Assembly (NCBI GenBank): GCA_963823665.1
Contig: CAWGMQ010000003.1
Location: forward strand, 544,001 to 608,000
Direction: 5' to 3'
DNA: 64,000 bases
From: an uncultured Planctomycetota bacterium
GTDB taxonomy: Bacteria > Planctomycetota > Planctomycetia > Isosphaerales > Isosphaeraceae
The position numbers and the translations under genes were made by a program. The notes beneath the pieces were generated by a model. That model saw nothing but the letters and a program-made list of their open reading frames with translations. It made no database searches and was not told the DNA's origin. Shown piece after piece: positions 246-13,076 of the stretch; within the stretch, counting starts at the first letter, position 1; each line of letters opens with the position of its first letter.

Positions 246-1001
246 TCACCCCCGCTTCCTCCACAACACCCCCTTCCCATCAATATCCACGATTGGCTCG
301 TTCACTCCGTGGTCCCGCCGATAATCCTCGACGGCCGCCCGGCAGCTCGGCATCGCCCCATAGTCATCCACAATGCAAAACCCCCCACGTGAGAGCCGCG
401 GATAAAACCCGTCAAGCACCTGAATCGTCGATTCATACAAATCCCCATCGAGCCGAAGAACCGCGATCCGCTCAATCGGCGCGCCAGGCACCGTATCCTT
501 GAACCACCCTTTGACCAACCGCACCTGCTCGCCCCACAGGCCCATGCGCCGGAAGTTCTCGACCACCTCTTCGACGCTCACGGCCAACTGTAGAAATCGA
601 TAAAGCTGATCGCCACGATCCTCGGGATACTTGCCCTCATCCGGCGGTGGCAGTCCCTGGAAGGAATCGAAACCCCAGACCTGCCGGGTCTTGTCTTCGT
701 GCGCCGCCAAGACTGCCGCCAGCATGATGCAGGCCCCGCCGCGCCAAATGCCGGTTTCGACAAAATCGCCTGGCACATTCTCGCGCACGACAGTTTCGCA
801 GCATTCCCGCAGCGAGCGCAGTCGAATACGCCCGATCATGGTCATGGCTTGCTGGGGCCAATCCAATCCGCCATCGCGCTTGCGCGGGTCAAACACCGGC
901 TGCGACCACGGGTCAACGGCCCGATCTTGATAGATCGCGTTGATGAGAACTTCTTGCATCAAGTCAAGGTAGCGGCCGACGATTCCGGGCGATTGGCTCA
1001 T
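246..1001 (-). CDS. TylF/MycF/NovP-family (macrocin-type) O-methyltransferase
   Basis: 251 aa ORF with the family motifs AMTMIG..RL, VPGDFVETGIWRGG, DSFQGLP, KGWFKDT, LRLDGDLYEST and IVDDY. Confidence 0.93.
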   Translation of the reverse strand: MSQSPGIVGRYLDLMQEVLINAIYQDRAVDPWSQPVFDPRKRDGGLDWPQQAMTMIGRIRLRSLRECCETVVRENVPGDFVETGIWRGGACIMLAAVLAAHEDKTRQVWGFDSFQGLPPPDEGKYPEDRGDQLYRFLQLAVSVEEVVENFRRMGLWGEQVRLVKGWFKDTVPGAPIERIAVLRLDGDLYESTIQVLDGFYPRLSRGGFCIVDDYGAMPSCRAAVEDYRRDHGVNEPIVDIDGKGVLWRKRG

Positions 1002-1046: not shown

Positions 1047-1391
1047 TCACGGCTCGCGTTGCTCGCGGCACAGGTAGATGTACGTTGGCTGGCCGCGCTT
1101 GACGGCCGGTCGCAGCTCGCCGGTCACGGTATCGGGCTCGACTACCAGGTAGCGCGTCGGGTTGTCACGGAATCGCTCGGTGGTGCCGTCGGGCTTGGCC
1201 AGGACGTAGACGCCCGCGGCCGCGTCGTGCGTGAAGCTGAATTGCCGGGGTTCCTCTCCGATCTCGTAGGTGTAGGTCGTGACCCCTTCACCTCCGTCAT
1301 CGCAGGTGTACCAGAACATGTGTCTCTCCGGCCGGCCAGTCTCAGCGGCGGCGTGTGGCGGCCGGTCGCTGTCAGGGGAATCAGAATTCAT
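1047..1391 (-). CDS. Hypothetical protein (~114 aa)
   Basis: ATG at 1391 preceded by GGAGG; GC3-rich codon usage; co-oriented just upstream of the methyltransferase; no family recognised. Confidence 0.6.
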   Translation of the reverse strand: MNSDSPDSDRPPHAAAETGRPERHMFWYTCDDGGEGVTTYTYEIGEEPRQFSFTHDAAAGVYVLAKPDGTTERFRDNPTRYLVVEPDTVTGELRPAVKRGQPTYIYLCREQREP

Positions 1392-1982
1392 GGTTGTTCC
1401 TCCAAAGGGAATGGGCAATTCGAACTCCGCTGCGACTTTATCTGCGTCAATCGGCGTCCTCTGCGGACAAGTCTGCTCCATTCGATCGCGTTGTGACGGC
1501 ATGCGCAGTCCGCCGCGATGACACCAGGCCTCTCCGACAGCCCGACCGGGAGTTTCGGCGACGGTGCCCCGAGCAAGCTCCCTCACAACCTTCCTATTCG
1601 TGTGATTCGTGTGATTCGTGGTTCAAAGTCTTGCTCCGCTTTCAGCGCTCTTCTGCGGCGATCAGCGTCATCTGCGGACAGCTTTTCCTGACCGACCCTT
1701 CCGTCCCATGCCGTGCGTGCTCAATGGTCCCGTAACGACATCCTTGAACCACGAAACACACGAACTACACGAAAGCAGAGGGAGTGGCATGAGTTAGAAT
1801 TGGCAATCACCTATTCGGACAAGAAACCTGCATCCGGACCGATTCGCGACCCAGGATTTGCAGATGCCTGACGCACTTCCTCTTCGTGTGTTTCGTCTTT
1901 TTCGTGGTTAAGAATCCCCTTCTGACTCAAGCCCCTTCTTATCTGCGTCATTCGGTGTCCTCTGCGGACAAGTCTGCTCCAT

Positions 1983-2178
1983 CTACGGGAAGACAATCGG
2001 CCGGTCGTGCTCAATCGCCACCGCACAAAGTTCCAACAGGCATTCAAACAGGTTCGCGCCGTTCGCGTCTCGGAAGCAATCGTAGAGCGACCCGGCCCAC
2101 GACATAACATTCAGCCAGCTCCTCCGGCTCCGTAGTATCGCCTAAATCCGACGCAAACACGTAGAGGCAATAACCCAT
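1983..2178 (-). pseudogene. Internally deleted remnant of an Imm70-like (polymorphic-toxin immunity) gene
   Basis: AAGGAG RBS and ATG at 2178 give MGYCLYVFASDLGDTTEPEELAECYV. After a frame change near 2093 the sequence reads GSLYDCFRDANGANLFECLLELCAVAIEHDRPIVFP* (stop 1983-1985). Both ends resemble Imm70-type proteins as I recall them, with the middle missing. Confidence 0.5.
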
Positions 2179-2559
2179 TGCAGTTCTCCTTTCGCGAATA
2201 AGCGCCCGAGATCACCAAGCGATAAGTACGGACGCTTGGTTATTCGGTTGACGAACGATGCTCACAACTCCGGGAGCTCCCCGTTGGCATCAATGTGGGA
2301 GTGAGGGGGGAGTGAGACTGGCCTGTTGAAAACTTGCAGTATGCGGAGCGGAGATTTCCCGCCGCGAATGTTGCGCCAACTTTCCCCCCCTTTAGAAGGG
2401 AGGCCAGGGGGGGTCCGTCCCGGCGGCCGCGATCAGAAAACCGTCGCGCAACAGAACCGCGCCAGCGGAGGGAACGCCGCTGGCCGGCCTTCGAATCCAA
2501 TCGAATTCCGCGCCTGCCGCTACGACTGGGCTTCGCGAGAGAGCGAGCAAGCCGGTCAC

Positions 2560-3021
2560 TCACAGAGACGCAACTCCGCCGCCTTGCCCTGAAACATGCG
2601 TCGTGAGCAACGCGGCGCAGCGCGCACAAGCGAGCTCGCTCGACCTGCCGCTTGCAAGAACAAATGCGACCGAAGTCGCGCACCGTGTGCACCCAATTCG
2701 ATCGATCCACACCCAGCCGGTCCAGGATGGGAGCCAAGTCGTCAGGGATTGCCCCGCACTTGTCTCGCCTCCCCGGCCCGTCCAATCGAATGGTCACGTT
2801 GCGGAAAGAGCTTGCGCCAGCGCAGTGCGACTTCAGCGTCGGACCATTGCTCGACTCTGTCGGATCGATTGCGGAGCACGAGATGCAGATGGTTGCTCAT
2901 AATTGCATAACAGCACGCCTCGATTCCGAAGAGTTGGGCGAGGTGGCGTAGCCGATCGGTAATCCACGCCGTACTGTGAGAGTAATCACGACCGGAGTAG
3001 GAGTCGGTTCCGCAAAGGAAT
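2560..3021 (-). mobile_element. RAYT-type HUH/Y1 transposase remnant 1 (5' truncated, centre deleted, frameshifted)
   Basis: Reads FLCGTDSYSGRDYSH...YAIMSNHLHLVLRN...RWRKLFPQRD, then jumps near 2793 to the C-terminal APILDRLGVDRSNWVHTVRDFGR. Segment 2793-3013 is a diverged direct repeat of 4264-4485. Confidence 0.85.
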
Positions 3022-3059
3022 CGCGGATGATCCTGATCAGCGGCGTTCTGGGGGGAGAT

Positions 3060-3572
3060 TTAGCGATTCGCCAGCTCCTTCCACGCCCACAGGCAGGCCA
3101 GGAAGAAGCGTTTTTCGTTGGACGATGCCAGTTGCCCGAAGGCGTGGATTCGCCGCTCTACTTCTTTGATCAAGGACAGCACATCCGATCGCTTGAATCG
3201 TTCCGTCAGGTCGTAGTCCGCGCGGTGGCGCCATTCTTGTAGATCGACAAACGTCTCGGCCAGTTCCCGGATTTCCGCGGGGATGGCGAAGCCCGCTGGC
3301 AGCCCTTTCGCGACGCCTTTCTTGAGTGTCCCACCGCCGAAAGACTTGCAGGCCTCCTTCATCACAGTGTGGGCGAAGGCCCGTCCCAGAACCTGACGGA
3401 ACGGTGCCTGGTTATGCTGTGCCCCGACCTGGATTCGGCAGGCCTCGTCGACTAGCATATGGAAAAGGGCGTAATAGGCCGCCGAGATCGCACGACGTAG
3501 GTTGGCCTGCTTCGGCTTCTTGGCATCGAGCTCCGCCAGGCGGACGGCTTGTTCCAGAAGATCCTTGTACAC
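3060..3572 (-). CDS. HEPN-domain protein (putative toxin of an MNT-HEPN module)
   Basis: 170 aa; N-terminal LRRAISAAYYALFH helix and C-terminal RHRADYD (Rx4Y) motif typical of HEPN proteins; starts 3 bp after the upstream gene's stop. Confidence 0.8.
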   Translation of the reverse strand: MYKDLLEQAVRLAELDAKKPKQANLRRAISAAYYALFHMLVDEACRIQVGAQHNQAPFRQVLGRAFAHTVMKEACKSFGGGTLKKGVAKGLPAGFAIPAEIRELAETFVDLQEWRHRADYDLTERFKRSDVLSLIKEVERRIHAFGQLASSNEKRFFLACLWAWKELANR

Positions 3573-3575
3573 GGC

Positions 3576-3887
3576 TCATTTCTCGTCGTCGTCCTCTTCG
3601 AGCTCGCTCGGCTTGGCGATCTGGATGTAAGGCCAGAGCTCGACGCCCAGCTCGCGAATCCGGCGGCGAACGGCGCTCTTAAGGTCGGTGATTTCCTGAC
3701 CGCTCAATTTCTCGACCTCGACATCCTCGTCGATGACAATCGTCACCCGCAGCGCATCCTCTCCGTCCGAGTCGACGTAGTCCTCGACGCGGATGTCGAC
3801 GACCTTGGGATCCCGCGGCAACTTCGATTTCACCTTGCCGAGCTTCAAGGCGTCCTGGACCTTTTGGATCATCTGATCGACGGCCAT
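3576..3887 (-). CDS. Small acidic protein, putative degenerate minimal nucleotidyltransferase-fold antitoxin
   Basis: 103 aa from ATG 3887 with a GGAGGAG RBS; DYVDSDGEDALRVTIVID...WPYI pattern; position directly upstream of HEPN matches MNT-HEPN operons. The canonical GS-x10-DxD motif is not evident. Confidence 0.6.
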   Translation of the reverse strand: MAVDQMIQKVQDALKLGKVKSKLPRDPKVVDIRVEDYVDSDGEDALRVTIVIDEDVEVEKLSGQEITDLKSAVRRRIRELGVELWPYIQIAKPSELEEDDDEK

Positions 3888-4020
3888 GGTATCTCCTCCG
3901 CGCAAAGCCGGGCTGCTGGGAACGCGACCGGGTTTCACCACAGCCATCCTACCAGATTCCTGGCCCCGCTCGCTCGTTCGGTGTCCCCGGGGAATCCGTC
4001 TTCATATCGCCCGGTGCTTC

Positions 4021-4575
4021 ATAGACGCTGCATGCCAAGAGCGCTGCCTCATCGAGAAGCGGCTGAGATTTGAACCGACCGGCCCAGAATCTTCCCGCCG
4101 AGCGGTCCTCCCGATTGGCCGCCCGGGCGACCCATTCACACAAGCACCTCATGAACCACGACAGACTCGACAGCCGGCCGCGCAGGATCGCCAGCCGGTC
4201 AGCGTCGGCCGTGAGCATCGCCAGGTCGACGTCATCGGGCTCTGCTGGCTCGCCGGTAACATCGTCACGTTGCGGAAAGAGCTTGCGCCAGCGCAGCGCG
4301 ACTTCAGCGTCGGACCATTGCTCGACGCTGTCGGGTCGATTGCGGAGAACGAGATGCAGGTGGTTGCTCATAATGGCATAACCGCACACCTCGACGCCGA
4401 ACAGCCCGGCGAGAGCGCGTAGCCGATCGAGAATCCAGGCCTTACGGTGAGAGTAATCACGACCGGAGTACGAGTCGGTGCCGCACAGGAAAGCTCTTCG
4501 GACGCACCGAGCAATGCAGTGATAAACGCCCACGCACTCTTCGTGGACGATGTAGCGGCGAGCAGAGGCCGGCAC
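4021..4575 (-). mobile_element. RAYT-type HUH/Y1 transposase remnant 2 (3' truncated)
   Basis: GVYHCIARCVRRAFLCG, YAIMSNHLHLV (HUH), LSSLSWFMRCL, ARAANRED..GRFWAGRFKSQPLLDEAALLACSVY. Homology stops right at the Tyr where YVDLNP is expected, and the ORF runs on in unrelated sequence to 3949. Confidence 0.9.
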
Positions 4576-4778
4576 GTAAGGCTCCATCACCAGGCAGGTG
4601 CAGCACGTTAGCGAGAGTATTCACGAGATCAGTAATGGACAAAAATACCAGTAGCGGCGCGGGTGTCAAGAGTGTTGAGAAAAAAATCGACAGCGAAGAC
4701 GATTTGCTCGGAGCTAACCCGGAGTTGCCACTACCACCGCCGCAGATGCTTCGGGACGAGCCCGGTGGCATCTGCACC

Positions 4779-4954
4779 GGGATGCCAGCTTCACATGAGA
4801 TCGGTGGGTGTCTGCGATCATGAGATCGGTGGGTGTCTGCGATCATGAGATCGGTGGGTGTCTGCGATCATCGCCGCGGCTACCGGGCGACGCGCCTGGT
4901 GCCAACATTTGGACGAGGGATGCCATCTCCACATCAGATCGGTGGGTGTCTGCG
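4779..4954 (+). repeat. Three exact tandem 25-bp units (CATGAGATCGGTGGGTGTCTGCGAT) plus a fourth spaced copy
   Basis: Units start at 4794, 4819 and 4844. Segments 4779-4816 and 4917-4954 form a 38-bp direct repeat with 3 mismatches. Confidence 0.95.
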
Positions 4955-5246
4955 TCCCTTCTGCGTCCCTCATTTGTCGTTCAACTCGGTGATGCAGCAT
5001 GATTCGCGGTGAAACCAACTGACAAAACCGGATGGAAACCTGGTTACAATCCTTTCGGCGGCGAAGACGGTGATTTCGCGCAGATACACGGCGTGAACCT
5101 CATTTTGAGCGCTTGTGGAGATCGCTGCTCATGATACCGCCTGTTCGGGGGCTAGCGTCAGATTCCGGCACCCGGTCCGATCGGACTCAAGCCGGTGAAC
5201 TTCGACAATACTACGTCCGTTCACTCGAACGCGTGGGTACCTCCAA

Positions 5247-6269
5247 ATGAAAATCGACACGACCACCATCACTTACCTTCGAGGGGGCGGTTTATCTCCC
5301 TACAGTTACGTTGGTGCTCTTCTCGCGACTCGACTCGGACGATACGGAAAGGCAATCACCAGCGTTGAACTTTATCCTTGGCTTCCTCTGCCAGCGGGAA
5401 GCGAACCTGTCGGTGACGGCTATTTCGACAAATGGCAAAGTGCCTTGGAAAAATTTCCGTTCGTCAACTTTGTCCGCAAACAGAAGCGGATCGAGATCGC
5501 ATTTCGAAGCAATCACTTTAACGCTGCCGACATGGCCAATTGGGGGATCACAGCCGAGAAAATTCGACTGGCACGTGAAGAGATTGCTGGAGCGCTTCAA
5601 CTTGTTCGCAAACGAGTCAAATCGACAGACGATTTCGACGTTGACCGATTCCTATCTGATGTGACACTCGCCTTGCAGATTCCTATTGGCTCAATGAAGG
5701 AATGGAACAGGTTACTCAAGGCAAACGCGGAGAAAGACAGGGCCGAATACGCTGCCATGAGTCCTTGGGATCAGCTTGATATCGACTGGACCGAATTCCA
5801 TCCGAAGGCGAGAGAAGTTCTCGACGACCCGTTCTTTTGGGATTGCATCGACGAAATCGCACCGCACGGCAACGACACTGGTGCCGATCTGTTGGAAGAT
5901 TTTCAGAAGTGGAACAAACGAAACTCTCAGAAGTCTCCGTTGATCTTCCTCGAGAATCTGTTCAGCAAATGGGATATCGAGCCGATTGATTGGCATCTGG
6001 CTAAGAGAAATGCAGTTCTCAAAGTCGAATCGGATCGACCAATCGAACTGGCCCTCTGTAACGAAGCTGCAATCGCACTGGCATTTGCAGTTCTCAAGCA
6101 GCGGGCGAATTGTCCCGCCGATGTTGCTCTTCTGGCGATGTGCGCGTTCGAGCGAAGCTCGATTCTGGCGAAGGCACGTAAACTACCCAAGGAAATCAAG
6201 TCGAAGATTTATACTGCAATAACCAGAATGAAGTCGAAGCTGAAATCACTGGCTTATGAAGAAATGTGA
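5247..6269 (+). CDS. Hypothetical protein with a YfeS/MolR-like C-terminal region
   Basis: 340 aa, visibly lower GC than its flanks; HPKAREVLDDPFFWDCIDEIAPHGNDTGADLL resembles the YfeS-type motif; N-terminal half not recognised. Confidence 0.6.
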   Translation: MKIDTTTITYLRGGGLSPYSYVGALLATRLGRYGKAITSVELYPWLPLPAGSEPVGDGYFDKWQSALEKFPFVNFVRKQKRIEIAFRSNHFNAADMANWGITAEKIRLAREEIAGALQLVRKRVKSTDDFDVDRFLSDVTLALQIPIGSMKEWNRLLKANAEKDRAEYAAMSPWDQLDIDWTEFHPKAREVLDDPFFWDCIDEIAPHGNDTGADLLEDFQKWNKRNSQKSPLIFLENLFSKWDIEPIDWHLAKRNAVLKVESDRPIELALCNEAAIALAFAVLKQRANCPADVALLAMCAFERSSILAKARKLPKEIKSKIYTAITRMKSKLKSLAYEEM

Positions 6270-6618
6270 AAGACTGATGCTCGGGAGTTTGGGAACCCGG
6301 ACACCCACCCTCGGGACTCGACAGTCGCGCCTGGGGAAAGTCAGGCACTGCTGACTCGCACCAGTTCCCGCCCCGCGACTGCGGGGCGCCTCGCGTCCGA
6401 CGCTGCGCACAGCAGGCGCTGCGCCACGCACGGTCAGCAACCGGGTGCGCTCGGCTACGTCGCCGGCGCTTGCACGCGCCGGTTGCTTCGAACCCCTCGA
6501 TATTGGATGGCGCTGCTTCGTCGCTTGCCGCGCCGGCGAAAGAGAGTGCCGCGGGCCGGCCTCAAATCCGAATTCCGCGTACGCGGCTGCGACCAGCGCT
6601 CGCGAGCGAGCCGTTCAC

Positions 6619-6760
6619 TTACAGAAACGCGACTTGCGCGGCCGCCTTCGCCTGAAACCACCGAAGCGAGCAACCCGGTGCAGCGCGCACAAGCGGACTC
6701 GCTCGACCTGCCGCTCGCTTGAACATGCGCCCGAAATCGCGCACCGTGTGCACCGATTCG
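6619..6760 (-). mobile_element. RAYT-type transposase remnant 3 (C-terminal tail only)
   Basis: SVHTVRDFGRMFKRAAGRASPL...RWFQAKAAAQVAFL* matches the tail of remnant 1. The downstream non-coding DNA at ~6527-6618 also aligns with ~2455-2559. Confidence 0.8.
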
Positions 6761-7400
6761 AAAGCCGATACAATTCGCGCGAGTCGACTTCCTCGTGGAT
6801 CGAATTCAACTTTCGAGCGGACTTCTTGTTTGCGTTCTGAAGCTTGGAGGGCATCGTGTTGAATATTCGCGCCAAGCTGCCGCTCCATTGTCACGAGAAG
6901 AGGATGAGTTCGACATCATTCTTCTGGAGTTCGGCCTGAAGTCGCAGTATGTTCTCAAGAACTTCCTTCGTGTCGCGTCCGAAGAAGCGAGAGGTCACGG
7001 AGCGAACCAGGCATGCACGACGGACCGAAGGCGGCGACTTCTCTATTGGATCAAGTATTCGATCGAGTTGAGCAGGGTGGTCTGCAACGCGGTCGTTTCG
7101 CAAATGAGGATGCGCGCGACGGCTCACATTTCCGACACGAGGCTGGGGAATGCGCGCCACGCGTATCACCACCGTAGGCACGTAATCCGTTCCCAGAGTT
7201 TTCTCGGCACACCTGAATTCGACCGCGATGCTCCTGTCACTCAGTTTATCGGTCGCCACCGCCGAACAGACCTTGATGCTGGGTGTTAGTTGTGCGAGCG
7301 ATCGCTTCAAGTAGGCCGCAATCGGCAGGACTCCCTGCAGGAAAGGGGGCTCGGGCTCCTGGCTGAGTTCGAAGTATTCTTCATCAAAGGATGCATATGG
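6761..7400 (-). other. Probable degraded or frameshifted hypothetical coding region abutting RAYT remnant 3
   Basis: Protein-like minus-strand stretches (FDEEYFELSQEPEPPFLQGVLPIAAYLKRSL; FFGRDTKEVLENILRLQAELQKNDVELILF), but no clear start or family. Confidence 0.3.
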
Positions 7401-7549
7401 AGTTTGCCAGCCCTCTCTGGGCGCGGTGACACGCCCGCCAGTGCGTGGTTCAGACGGGACGCACGTCCTCCAGCCTCGGGCGCGAGCCCGATCCTCGGAG
7501 GCGGTCACACTGATGTGCGACGCACACATTTCCCATCCGTACCAAGGTC

Positions 7550-11223: not shown

Positions 11224-13076
11224 TTATTCTGCGGCGCTGCGGAGCTCGGCTAGCTCAAGTGCGCGCGTGGTCGATCTGCGGGCTTCGGCGGAGTCGATCG
11301 GCTCGACGAGCAGGGCCGCGAACTCTCGCAGCGTTTCGATCAAGGCCAGGCGAAGCGTGTAGCGCTTGGGAAAGCGGACAACCAGTTTCTCATAGATCCG
11401 GATCGCGCGACGAAAGTCGTCCCGGCCTCGTGCGTCGTCAAGAATCAAGCGAGACCGCCCGGCGCGTCGGAGCGCCTGAGCGACGAGCGCGAGCAATTCA
11501 TCGTCTTCAGCGTGAGCTCTCGACGCGGCCTGAGAGAATGCGACCGGATGGAGAACGGCGCGGGGCGTGCCTGTGTACAGTGGAATTTCGGAGGCGTTCA
11601 GCCGGCTTTCTATGGCCGCGAGCGTGATCTGGTCGATCGCGCCCAAGGCGTTGTCGAGCGCCGTGCGCTCCTGCATTTCCAGGTGGCGAAGCTCGTCCAG
11701 GTTTGCGGTGGAGCGGCGATTCTCGTAACAGAGGATGGCCATGCTTCCCACGAGTGAAAGCAACAAAACGCTGGCCGCCGCGATCACGGCGGGGCGATGT
11801 CGGCTCGACAATCTCACCGACCGGTGCCATAAGCTCGGTCGCCGCGCGCGCACGGGCTGATCGGCGAGGAACCGCCGCAGGTCAGCGGCGAGCTCCCGGG
11901 CCGAGGCGTATCGCGCAGACGGATCTTTTGCGATCGCCTTCATCACCACGGTTTCCAGGTCGCGGGCGATCGACTTGTTCAACCGCCGCAGCGGTGCTGG
12001 CTCTTGCTGGAGAATGCGAGCGCGCAGCTCTTCGGTGCTGGGCGCGGCATGAGCTGGATGCAGCGTCAAGAGCTCATAAAGCGTGACTCCCAGGGCGTAG
12101 ATATCCGTGCGTGCGTCGGTCGAGCCGCGGCTTCCACCGAGCTGCTCCGGGCTCAAGTAACGCAGTGTCGCGGCGTGTCGGTCGCTCTCGATCAGCTCGT
12201 TCTTCTCTCGCGGCAGTCGCGCCAGCCCGAAGTCGGTCACCCAGAGGCGGCCGCGGCCATCGATCAGCAAATTGGAGGGCTTGATGCCGCGATGGACGAC
12301 TCCGAACTGATGCGCGTGCTCGAGTGCGTCGGCGGCCTGAACGGCCCACCTTACGGCTCGGTGGCAGAACGGCCGGACCGCGCTCGACGACCGTGCCGCG
12401 GCCGACACGCGCCAGGCGCTGCCCACGACCGGCAGCGCGAGTTCGGGCAAATCGATCCGGGCGGCATCATGATCCTCGGCGGCCCGGGTGGTCTTCAGCT
12501 CCCGCAGCACGTCCGAGAGCGGACGTCCGTCGATGAACTGCATCACAGAGTAATGGACGCCCGCATCGAAGCCCGTGCCGAAGATCGGGACAATGTGCTC
12601 GTGCCGCAGGAACCCGGCCGCCTGCGCCTCCGCCTGAAAGCGATGGCGCCGGCGCGAATCGGGCGATGCACCGGTGGGAAGCACCTTGAGGGCCACTCTT
12701 CGACCACCAGAGCCCTGCTCTGCCTCGAATACAACACCACCCATGCCGCCGCGGCCAATCTCTCGGATCAAGCGAAACTCACCCAACTGCGCGGCGCCGA
12801 GAGGTCTGCGCCGGATACCCCGGTCGCCGCTCGCAGCGCAAAGTGGCTCGCCGCATCCTCGACCAGCTCGAGACCATCGAGGCACTCGCCGAGTGCCTCT
12901 GCGATGGCGGGATGACGCGCCAGGTATTCGCTCCGCGGCGGCAGTCGGCCCGCTCGCTTCAACCTCGCGTATTCCTCGAGTGCGAGCGTGATCTGCTCGT
13001 CTTCGGACGGCTCCAGCTCTTGATCCGATTCATAAGAAAGCCTTTCTCCGGACGACCCAGATTCCTGGGACATCAT
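11224..13076 (-). CDS. Hanks-type Ser/Thr protein kinase with TM segment and helical C-terminus; frameshift near 12800
   Basis: Planctomycete kinase N-terminus (LEEY...EYLARHPAIAEALGECL), then LGEFRLIREIGRGGMG, VALKVL, HRGIKPSN, DFGLA, TLRYLSPEQ and DIYALGVTLYELLT. Confidence 0.9.

Follow-up and report, generated by a model that had tools for sequence, protein, structure and literature searches.

A 64,000-nucleotide (nt) stretch of an Isosphaeraceae genome, called the window below, contains an eroded cluster of a RAYT-like element inside a decaying toxin/glycosylation island. With moderate confidence, we consider the window to be the eroded product of an insertion sequence (IS)-like RAYT that probably remodels its neighbourhood by end-anchored joining and recombination, a reading based on sequence comparison. 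We observed that the element ends are fixed and the targets variable, that the clusters are co-oriented, that a related genome has end-anchored duplications, that islands have recently exchanged DNA and that internal deletions are scattered. The junctions suggest that cleavage and strand transfer may occur at the element ends. An earlier note on this DNA had proposed an integron-like capture array, in which a RAYT-type HUH transposase shuffles small toxin and immunity cassettes.

The window corresponds to C3:544001-608000 of genome G000 (16.5 Mb in 12 contigs), which was compared with G001, from the same genus, and with G009, from a related genus of the same family. In G000 we sampled 40 regions around matches, 20 evenly spaced control regions and 8 motif clusters, and the local statistics cover about 0.9 Mb of this genome. 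The DNA searches scored the best 40 of 132-232 candidates, and small pieces may therefore be missed. Element coordinates (E) refer to the intact copy L002:500-2520(-), which carries a 409-amino-acid (aa) open reading frame (ORF) and served as the reference copy.

Three pieces of one element in the window

The earlier note had described three co-oriented fragments of one transposase family, and these were confirmed as pieces of a single element of about 1.8 kb, all on the minus strand. Piece 1 (2457..3020, -) consists of E502-732 fused to E1400-1737; the internal deletion at 2789/2790 was absent from the earlier description, and its junction (E732|1400) was found at six loci of G000. Piece 2 (4020..4819, -) covers E174-973 with its ATG at 4587, and retains the HUH motif and Tyr189 without VDLNP and the sequence beyond, the break lying one base past the catalytic Tyr codon. 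This piece is 99.6-99.75% identical to an intact copy located 100 kb away (L046), and the junction of its E973 to the neighbouring MNT-like gene recurs at L072. It is accompanied by repeated left ends (4764..4963, -) with four cores GGTGGGTGTCTG at 4805, 4830, 4855 and 4943, the piece and the repeats together spanning 4020-4963. Piece 3 (6291..6760, -; approximately E1495-1972) comprises the C-terminal codons, the 3' region and the right end, the inverted core of which lies at 6298-6307. Seven element junctions can be counted in the window: two represent true element ends, and the remaining five stem from internal breaks or from the internal deletion.

The transposase resembles TnpA-REP subclass 2.3

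Both the motifs and the predicted fold bore out the assignment of the fragments to a RAYT-type HUH transposase. Residues H76, H78 and Y189-VDLN were invariant in 52 homologues, YVDLNP being the subclass form of the class-2 Y---NP motif, and the distance from the HUH motif to the tyrosine (H78 to Y189) is 111 aa. The TS motif (T209-S210) was also invariant, and the protein has core insertions and a conserved C-terminal domain (the long tail). An AlphaFold2 model of the transposase, built from a 120-sequence alignment, had a pLDDT of 87 (a model from a shallow alignment, with a pLDDT of 56, was set aside), and Foldseek ranked E. coli TnpA-REP 4ER8 first for the predicted fold (E=7e-4), followed by ISDra2/IS608 TnpA. 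When the PDB was searched by sequence, only a hit of E~0.5 to ISDra2 TnpA was obtained; no match was found in Pfam or PADLOC, and NF047646 matched 52/52 homologues, all below the cut-off. Judged by published motif features and the modelled fold, the 409-aa HUH/Y1 transposase fits TnpA-REP subclass 2.3.

The transposase belongs to a large family (E<=1e-20 for 6180 of the 8000 candidates scored), and the source labels of close homologues include 'transposase [Isosphaeraceae bacterium]' and 'REP element-mobilizing transposase RayT'. Pieces of the element were present at no fewer than 36 loci of G000 (including two complete ORFs and one nearly complete), dozens of matches each were found in G001 and G009, and 14 of the 31 genomes searched contained any match. 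G000 also carries a second, more distant subclass-2.3-like RAYT in two intact copies (L016 and L018, at C3:290 kb and C10:189 kb), and a fragment of another RAYT group lies at L073:10620-10874.

Element ends and end-anchored joining

A short imperfect inverted repeat with the core AGACACCCA is located at both ends of the element. The 11-mer CAGACACCCAC occurred 74 times versus once for the reversed control, and the core was counted once in 240 kb of control DNA. The ends are non-palindromic, and no hairpins were indicated by folding, which was no better than that of shuffles for the six sequences analysed. Many of the end copies are clustered 130-170-nt miniature dimers, and the miniature elements were co-oriented in 13 of 14 cases.

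The survey of end junctions gave 62 rows that included many chance motif matches, and genuine ends with an uninterrupted paralogue were picked by eye. Twelve distinct junctions selected in this way were located 6-8 nt beyond the core, several at 5-10 nt and two at 16 nt after a stuttered end. The targets were arbitrary mid-gene sites in genes for GT2 (glycosyltransferase), Imm70, TylF and RHS, in a group II intron, in other genes and in the element itself, and no target word was common to the end junctions examined. The same near-fixed joining was observed in G009, with that genome's own end variants.

Neighbouring copies lying <=6 kb apart were co-oriented in 35 of 37 pairs from four genomes, at loci that had been chosen for multiple matches and not by strand. 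Pieces retaining the right end only numbered 19 versus 3 with the left end only, not all of them being independent. Moreover, 14 head-to-tail repeats were detected in the fetched DNA of G000, G001 and G009 at cut-offs of >=120 nt and >=90%. Seven of these involve the element family, and every one of the seven has an element end at the junction (five by pattern and two by eye). At L127:7746-10032 of G009, for example, a 100%-identical tandem unit of 1143 nt is composed of about 600 nt of non-element flank and a right-end piece. The near-fixed-distance junctions and the end-anchored duplications are signs of element ends being joined to neighbouring DNA, in line with the earlier note.

In addition, L046 and the window's island share E174-973 and about 1.45 kb of a GT2 gene (2 mismatches). 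The GT2 part shared with L046 starts 7 nt beyond the right core, and further out the similarity falls to about 80%. This sharing indicates a recent exchange.

At distant loci the end motif was found in the correct orientation upstream of the gene in 19/69 cases, downstream in 12/68 and on both sides in 9/60; it was in the wrong orientation at four loci upstream and two downstream, and the control motif was present at 0 and 1. The motif was clear in 3/5 Gammaproteobacteria plasmid loci and not in those of Catenovulum and Vibrio. On these counts, the end motif is shared by part of the family only.

At L116, L117, L118 and L119 (G000 C3:194-206 kb, C11:551-580 kb and C11:696-705 kb), miniature elements of 130-170 nt that share the RAYT ends form co-oriented clusters with a spacing of 1-5 kb, and single accessory genes, toxin-antitoxin (TA) pairs and group II introns lie between them. 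On a Saccharobesus plasmid (L164:1625-3223), BrnA and RelE/ParE TA genes are bracketed by CAGACACCCA motifs and adjoin a homologous transposase.

Internal breaks and cargo genes

Indel artefacts and the left starts of the most diverged copy were dropped from the list of internal breaks, and shared junctions were counted as one event. The remaining 66 independent events fell at 61 positions, and coincident pairs were not above chance (p=0.11-0.16). Fixed motifs, which the earlier note had led us to expect at the breaks inside the transposase, were not found at these positions: the best 4-mer had a family-wise p of 0.09-0.12, and the dinucleotide test was not significant (best nominal p=0.02). 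Microhomology was seen at several of the internal deletions. Left-hand breaks and end joins were concentrated in a broad hot spot at E1379-1404, equivalent to window position 2789 (L136, L137, L142, L152, L052, L058 and L081); it is close to the Met codon with which the C-terminal domain begins, and a TCGA preference or retention of the C-terminal coding part are candidate reasons.

The predicted enrichment of TA and immunity cargo was not significant. Pfam matches to TA, immunity or effector families among genes of <=420 aa were found for 6/129 genes near element pieces and 5/142 control genes (p=0.76), and pooling with the motif clusters and G001 loci gave 18/262 vs 5/142 (odds ratio 2.0, p=0.19), figures for which the classes were assigned after the Pfam output had been seen, the controls came from G000 only and the gene caller can miss low-GC genes. 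Cassette-like behaviour of the cargo was not supported either: among six two-ended copies, the flanks met at an empty site in none (0/6, in the fetched DNA), and at four loci homologous to the MNT-like/HEPN pair of the window, from three other genomes, no RAYT or end motif was present within 1.5 kb. The flanking genes were not co-oriented with the element (94/176), and the cargo borders had no shared motif or conserved recombination site. Because the breaks lack a fixed motif, the cargo is not significantly enriched, the cargo homologues are RAYT-free and the flanks are not co-oriented, the integron-like capture array is unsupported. Random breakpoints without cargo enrichment, which had been named in advance as the mark of ordinary IS decay, largely describe the internal breaks and do not describe the element ends.

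Association with RHS genes

In G009, 6/6 RHS-core matches, forming five clusters, were located <=3.3 kb from a copy of the element, and the copies with 5 kb on either side cover about 4.5% of the genome. The cleanest array, L125:5400-14250 of this genome, contains an RHS gene and a colicin-D-type tip with its immunity gene, then several repeats of the left end that lead into an orphan RHS core, and after these two intact RAYT copies with a small gene between them. Here the end repeats are joined directly into the orphan RHS core, which starts at the element end. Linkage of RAYT, RHS and glycosyltransferase genes was present in G000, G001 and G009. In G000, 4/18 RHS matches were within 5 kb; when counted by island with the query's own locus excluded, the number was 2/16 (p=0.07). 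Among the loci from other genomes, RHS was found in 2/80 and a second copy of the element in 4/44 long loci. A family-wide occurrence of arrays was considered and rejected on this last count; at least one of the four loci is perhaps not independent, and short-read assemblies may hide arrays. The RHS linkage may have been inherited with the island rather than selected.

Proposed mechanism and alternative explanations

Y1 HUH enzymes cut and rejoin single strands. We propose that the transposase would nick one end of the element and join that end to a site close by on the same strand, a reaction that probably takes place at a replication fork. The outcome could be a local duplication that includes flanking DNA, or a deletion next to the element. 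The 0/6 empty sites suggest that each end is joined on its own. Host recombination between paralogous RHS/glycosyltransferase islands could then use the resulting direct repeats as portable homology, and deletions at short homologies (microhomology) would wear down the copies. On the simplest reading, piece 2 would have been intact until recently, and its right end would have been joined to GT2 about 5 kb downstream; the GT2-joined product would then have recombined into the paralogous island, and the copy in the window would later have lost its 3' half.

Several results weigh against this account. All seven end-anchored duplications come from G009, and none in G000 or G001 passed the cut-offs, the one at L063 being under the cut-off at 87%. 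A replication-strand bias was not detected (21/36, p=0.4, in a noisy test), and the incompatibility-by-distance test gave no recombination signature. As no clean insertion site was found (0/6), we infer whole-element transposition from copy number alone. Breaks just before TCGA numbered 5/66 vs 0.71 expected (nominal p=7e-4, family-wise 0.09-0.12). Furthermore, a single origin of the E732|1400 deletion was not supported by the trees, in which the six copies do not form one clade (AU test, p=0.005 for the 5' part and 0.065 for the 3' part); either recurrent site-specific cutting at this position or one origin followed by exchange may account for them, and one copy changes affinity between relatives along its length.

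Ordinary IS decay, that is, independent insertions at an accessory hot spot followed by host deletions with the transposase uninvolved in the rearrangements, would be consistent with the scatter of the 66 breaks over 61 positions (coincident pairs, p=0.11-0.16), the microhomology at deletions, the non-significant TA/immunity enrichment and the presence of other mobile elements at element loci (IS66 at 3/35 loci vs 0/20 controls). However, it leaves unexplained the end-precise mid-gene junctions, the duplications that start at the ends, the co-orientation in 35/37 pairs and the 0/6 empty sites, and we regard it as quite unlikely. The integron-like array, where a RAYT joins small toxin/immunity cassettes at fixed motifs, appears still less plausible and is, in our opinion, very improbable. 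In its favour, two junctions recur (E973|MNT-like at two loci, E732|1400 at six), end motifs often enclose TA pairs (L116, L117, L120, L122 and L164) and the pooled TA/immunity trend is about 2-fold (18/262 vs 5/142, p=0.19), but the cargo borders have no common motif, five of the seven window junctions are internal scars, the cargo homologues are RAYT-free and the flanking genes are not co-oriented (94/176). There is similarly little chance that the arrangement is an assembly chimera among near-identical repeats. Among the contigs listed from three soil runs, none bridges a window junction by 31 nt, and the near-identical blocks of 800 nt and 1.45 kb shared with L046 could be polishing artefacts; yet two types of junction were found again at other loci, diverged by 7-17%, the independent short-read contigs from the soil runs coincide exactly with unique stretches of the window and have loose ends of the same sequence as the flanks of four other loci (L057, L063, L077 and L081), and G001 and G009 have the same architecture.

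The RHS association raises a further possibility, namely that in this family the element is kept in RHS polymorphic-toxin islands as a resident diversifier because its end-joining makes and reshuffles orphan toxin-tip/immunity modules. The proximity of all six RHS-core matches to copies in G009, the L125 end repeats joined into an orphan RHS core beside a colicin-D-type tip and immunity gene, and the linkage in three genomes would favour this. The low counts in G000 (4/18, or 2/16 by island) and elsewhere (RHS at 2/80 loci, a second copy at 4/44 long loci) speak against it, and the cases are not independent because the paralogous islands inherit the linkage; we therefore consider the idea rather doubtful. 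Equally tentative is the broadest form of the hypothesis, according to which subclass-2.3 RAYT-like proteins would belong to autonomous elements with AGACACCCA ends and would not be domesticated REP mobilisers, one-ended same-strand joining would duplicate and capture their neighbours, and they would act as resident diversifiers of the RHS/glycosylation islands of this planctomycete family, making orphan toxin/immunity modules. The end-anchored joining and recombination proposed above remain our preferred explanation of the window.

Relation to known systems

The protein family is already known; what is new is the behaviour of a known transposase subclass, which is modest but testable. Integrons have an integrase, attC sites and arrays of small accessory genes. 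The present element resembles them in outcome only, through arrays of small accessory genes, and differs from them in having no integrase, no attC-like site at the cargo borders and no co-orientation of the cargo. IS91-type elements use a larger, different HUH transposase. As described for the one-ended transposition of IS91/ISCR, an HUH enzyme, one fixed end that is kept and adjacent DNA that is carried along (PMC13181058) are features of the way in which the present element appears to work. However, the two ends of IS91/ISCR elements, ori and ter, are distinct and the target is a tetranucleotide (PMC13181058), whereas the present element has a Y1 TnpA-REP fold, inverted ends that are both joined and no target word that we could see.

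According to Quentin et al. 2018 (PMC6006769), TnpA-REP subclass 2.3 is multi-copy, recently spreading and, in the available part of that text, without identifiable REP-like flanks; its hosts are mainly Chromatiales/Alteromonadales and the median protein length is 325 aa. The present transposase shares with it YVDLNP, NHxH, about 110 residues from HUH to Tyr, the core insertions, the TS motif and the long tail (PMC6006769), as well as several copies per genome, and homologues of the element were found in Alteromonadales. It differs in the longer protein (409 aa vs a median of 325; PMC6006769), the inverted ends, the miniature derivatives, the dozens of pieces per genome and the end-anchored rearrangements. 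As regards REP-like hairpins, the present ends fold no better than shuffles (six sequences), yet inverted end repeats exist.

In TIRtrons/TIRYT, too, a RAYT-like gene lies between inverted repeats, and these repeats make up a family that is dispersed as dimers and clusters (Di Nocera et al. 2013, PMC3733652). Their consensus GGGGWSAS (PMC3733652) differs from the present core GGGTGTCT, and the 26 TIRYT examples treated in the accessible text of PMC6006769 all belong to subclasses 2.1, 2.2 and 2.5, none to 2.3. Mobility of the whole element or of its flanks is not described in the sections of PMC3733652 available to us. The E. coli REPtron/BIME system has the same fold, and low-specificity cleavage and strand transfer leading to local tandem amplification has been proposed for it (Ton-Hoang et al. 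2012, PMC3333891). In contrast to the present element, found at 36 or more loci, REPtrons are single-copy and immobile as a unit (PMC3333891); REPs are palindromic hairpins with a GTAG foot (PMC3333891), whereas the AGACACCCA cores are non-palindromic, and the units amplified here take in the gene and flanking DNA. RAYTs were treated as mostly single-copy by Bertels et al. (PMC5581495, in the part available), and the accessible portion of bioRxiv 2024.07.17.603846 mentions RAYT and Rhs separately. Our searches of the open-access literature turned up no account of subclass-2.3 ends, of miniature elements, of end-anchored rearrangement or of an RHS association, though the supplements of PMC6006769 may list flanking repeats.

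With its defined ends, its miniature derivatives and duplications that are end-anchored and very recent, the element offers a direct substrate for testing whether a transposase of the REP-associated type moves both itself and its neighbours. Such mobilisation, if true, would connect the domesticated RAYTs with HUH elements that capture genes. A functional RHS link would mean, in addition, that polymorphic toxins can also vary by a route driven by a transposase. For experiments, the G009 arrays are better suited than the window, which is itself decayed.

Gene neighbourhood of the window

We regard the neighbours of the element in the window as residents of the island and as passengers rather than as cassettes that carry recombination sites of their own. 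A TylF O-methyltransferase gene (246..1001, -; PF05711, E=2e-97), which has paralogues, belongs to a glycosyltransferase island that is present again at several loci. It is followed by a 114-aa gene (1047..1391, -) that has no family match and is repeated in paralogous islands, and by a cluster of short REP-like repeats (1438..1982, no strand assigned) unrelated to the RAYT ends. The paralogous islands (the window, L059, L065/66 and L072/73) contain RHS genes, the element, Imm70, GxxExxY, the small gene, TylF and two glycosyltransferases. The slot between the element and TylF varies from one island copy to another, G001 included, and the hypervariable neighbourhood foreseen in the earlier note was indeed found, this slot being different in each paralogous island.

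The gene identities suggested earlier for the neighbours were supported to different degrees. The two window pieces of the Imm70-like immunity gene remnant (1983..2178, -) are 81-89% identical to an intact paralogue at L066 (PF15601, E=6e-7), and about 410 nt have been deleted at 2097/2098 with CCC microhomology. A second dispersed repeat family (2313..2456, no strand assigned) is fused to RAYT piece 1. In the proposed MNT-like/HEPN pair, the intact HEPN-like gene (3060..3572, -) was weakly supported by Pfam (E=0.027) and by the PDB HEPN proteins 9XBD and 9XBC (E=0.07 and 0.28). The MNT identity of its small acidic partner (3576..3887, -), located upstream of the HEPN-like gene, was unconfirmed: there was no relevant match in Pfam, NCBIfam or PADLOC, and the Atlas clusters are labelled only 'hypothetical'. 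The low-GC, single-copy YfeS-like gene (5247..6269, +) has the left ends of piece 2 on one side and the right end of piece 3 on the other, and its name agrees with the source names of homologues that are 84-89% identical. The gene at 6761..7412 (-) is degraded, as had been noted: it is truncated and related (60%) to an unnamed protein of 430 aa, and it is not a recognisable toxin.

The short-repeat family of the islands (window 1438-1982; L059:5868-6272; L066:7420-8510) is separate from the element and tandemly amplified, and it flanks GxxExxY (PD-(D/E)XK) and other small genes. Elsewhere in the window, a Ser/Thr kinase gene (11224-13076, -) is seemingly divided between two frames; frameshifted genes are common in the G000 assembly, and sequencing errors may account for part of them. 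Inside an RHS/glycosyltransferase island, L065:15657-16761 contains broken ORFs with no Pfam match, which presumably resemble part of a conjugative relaxase/helicase, and the island may be derived from a mobilisable element.

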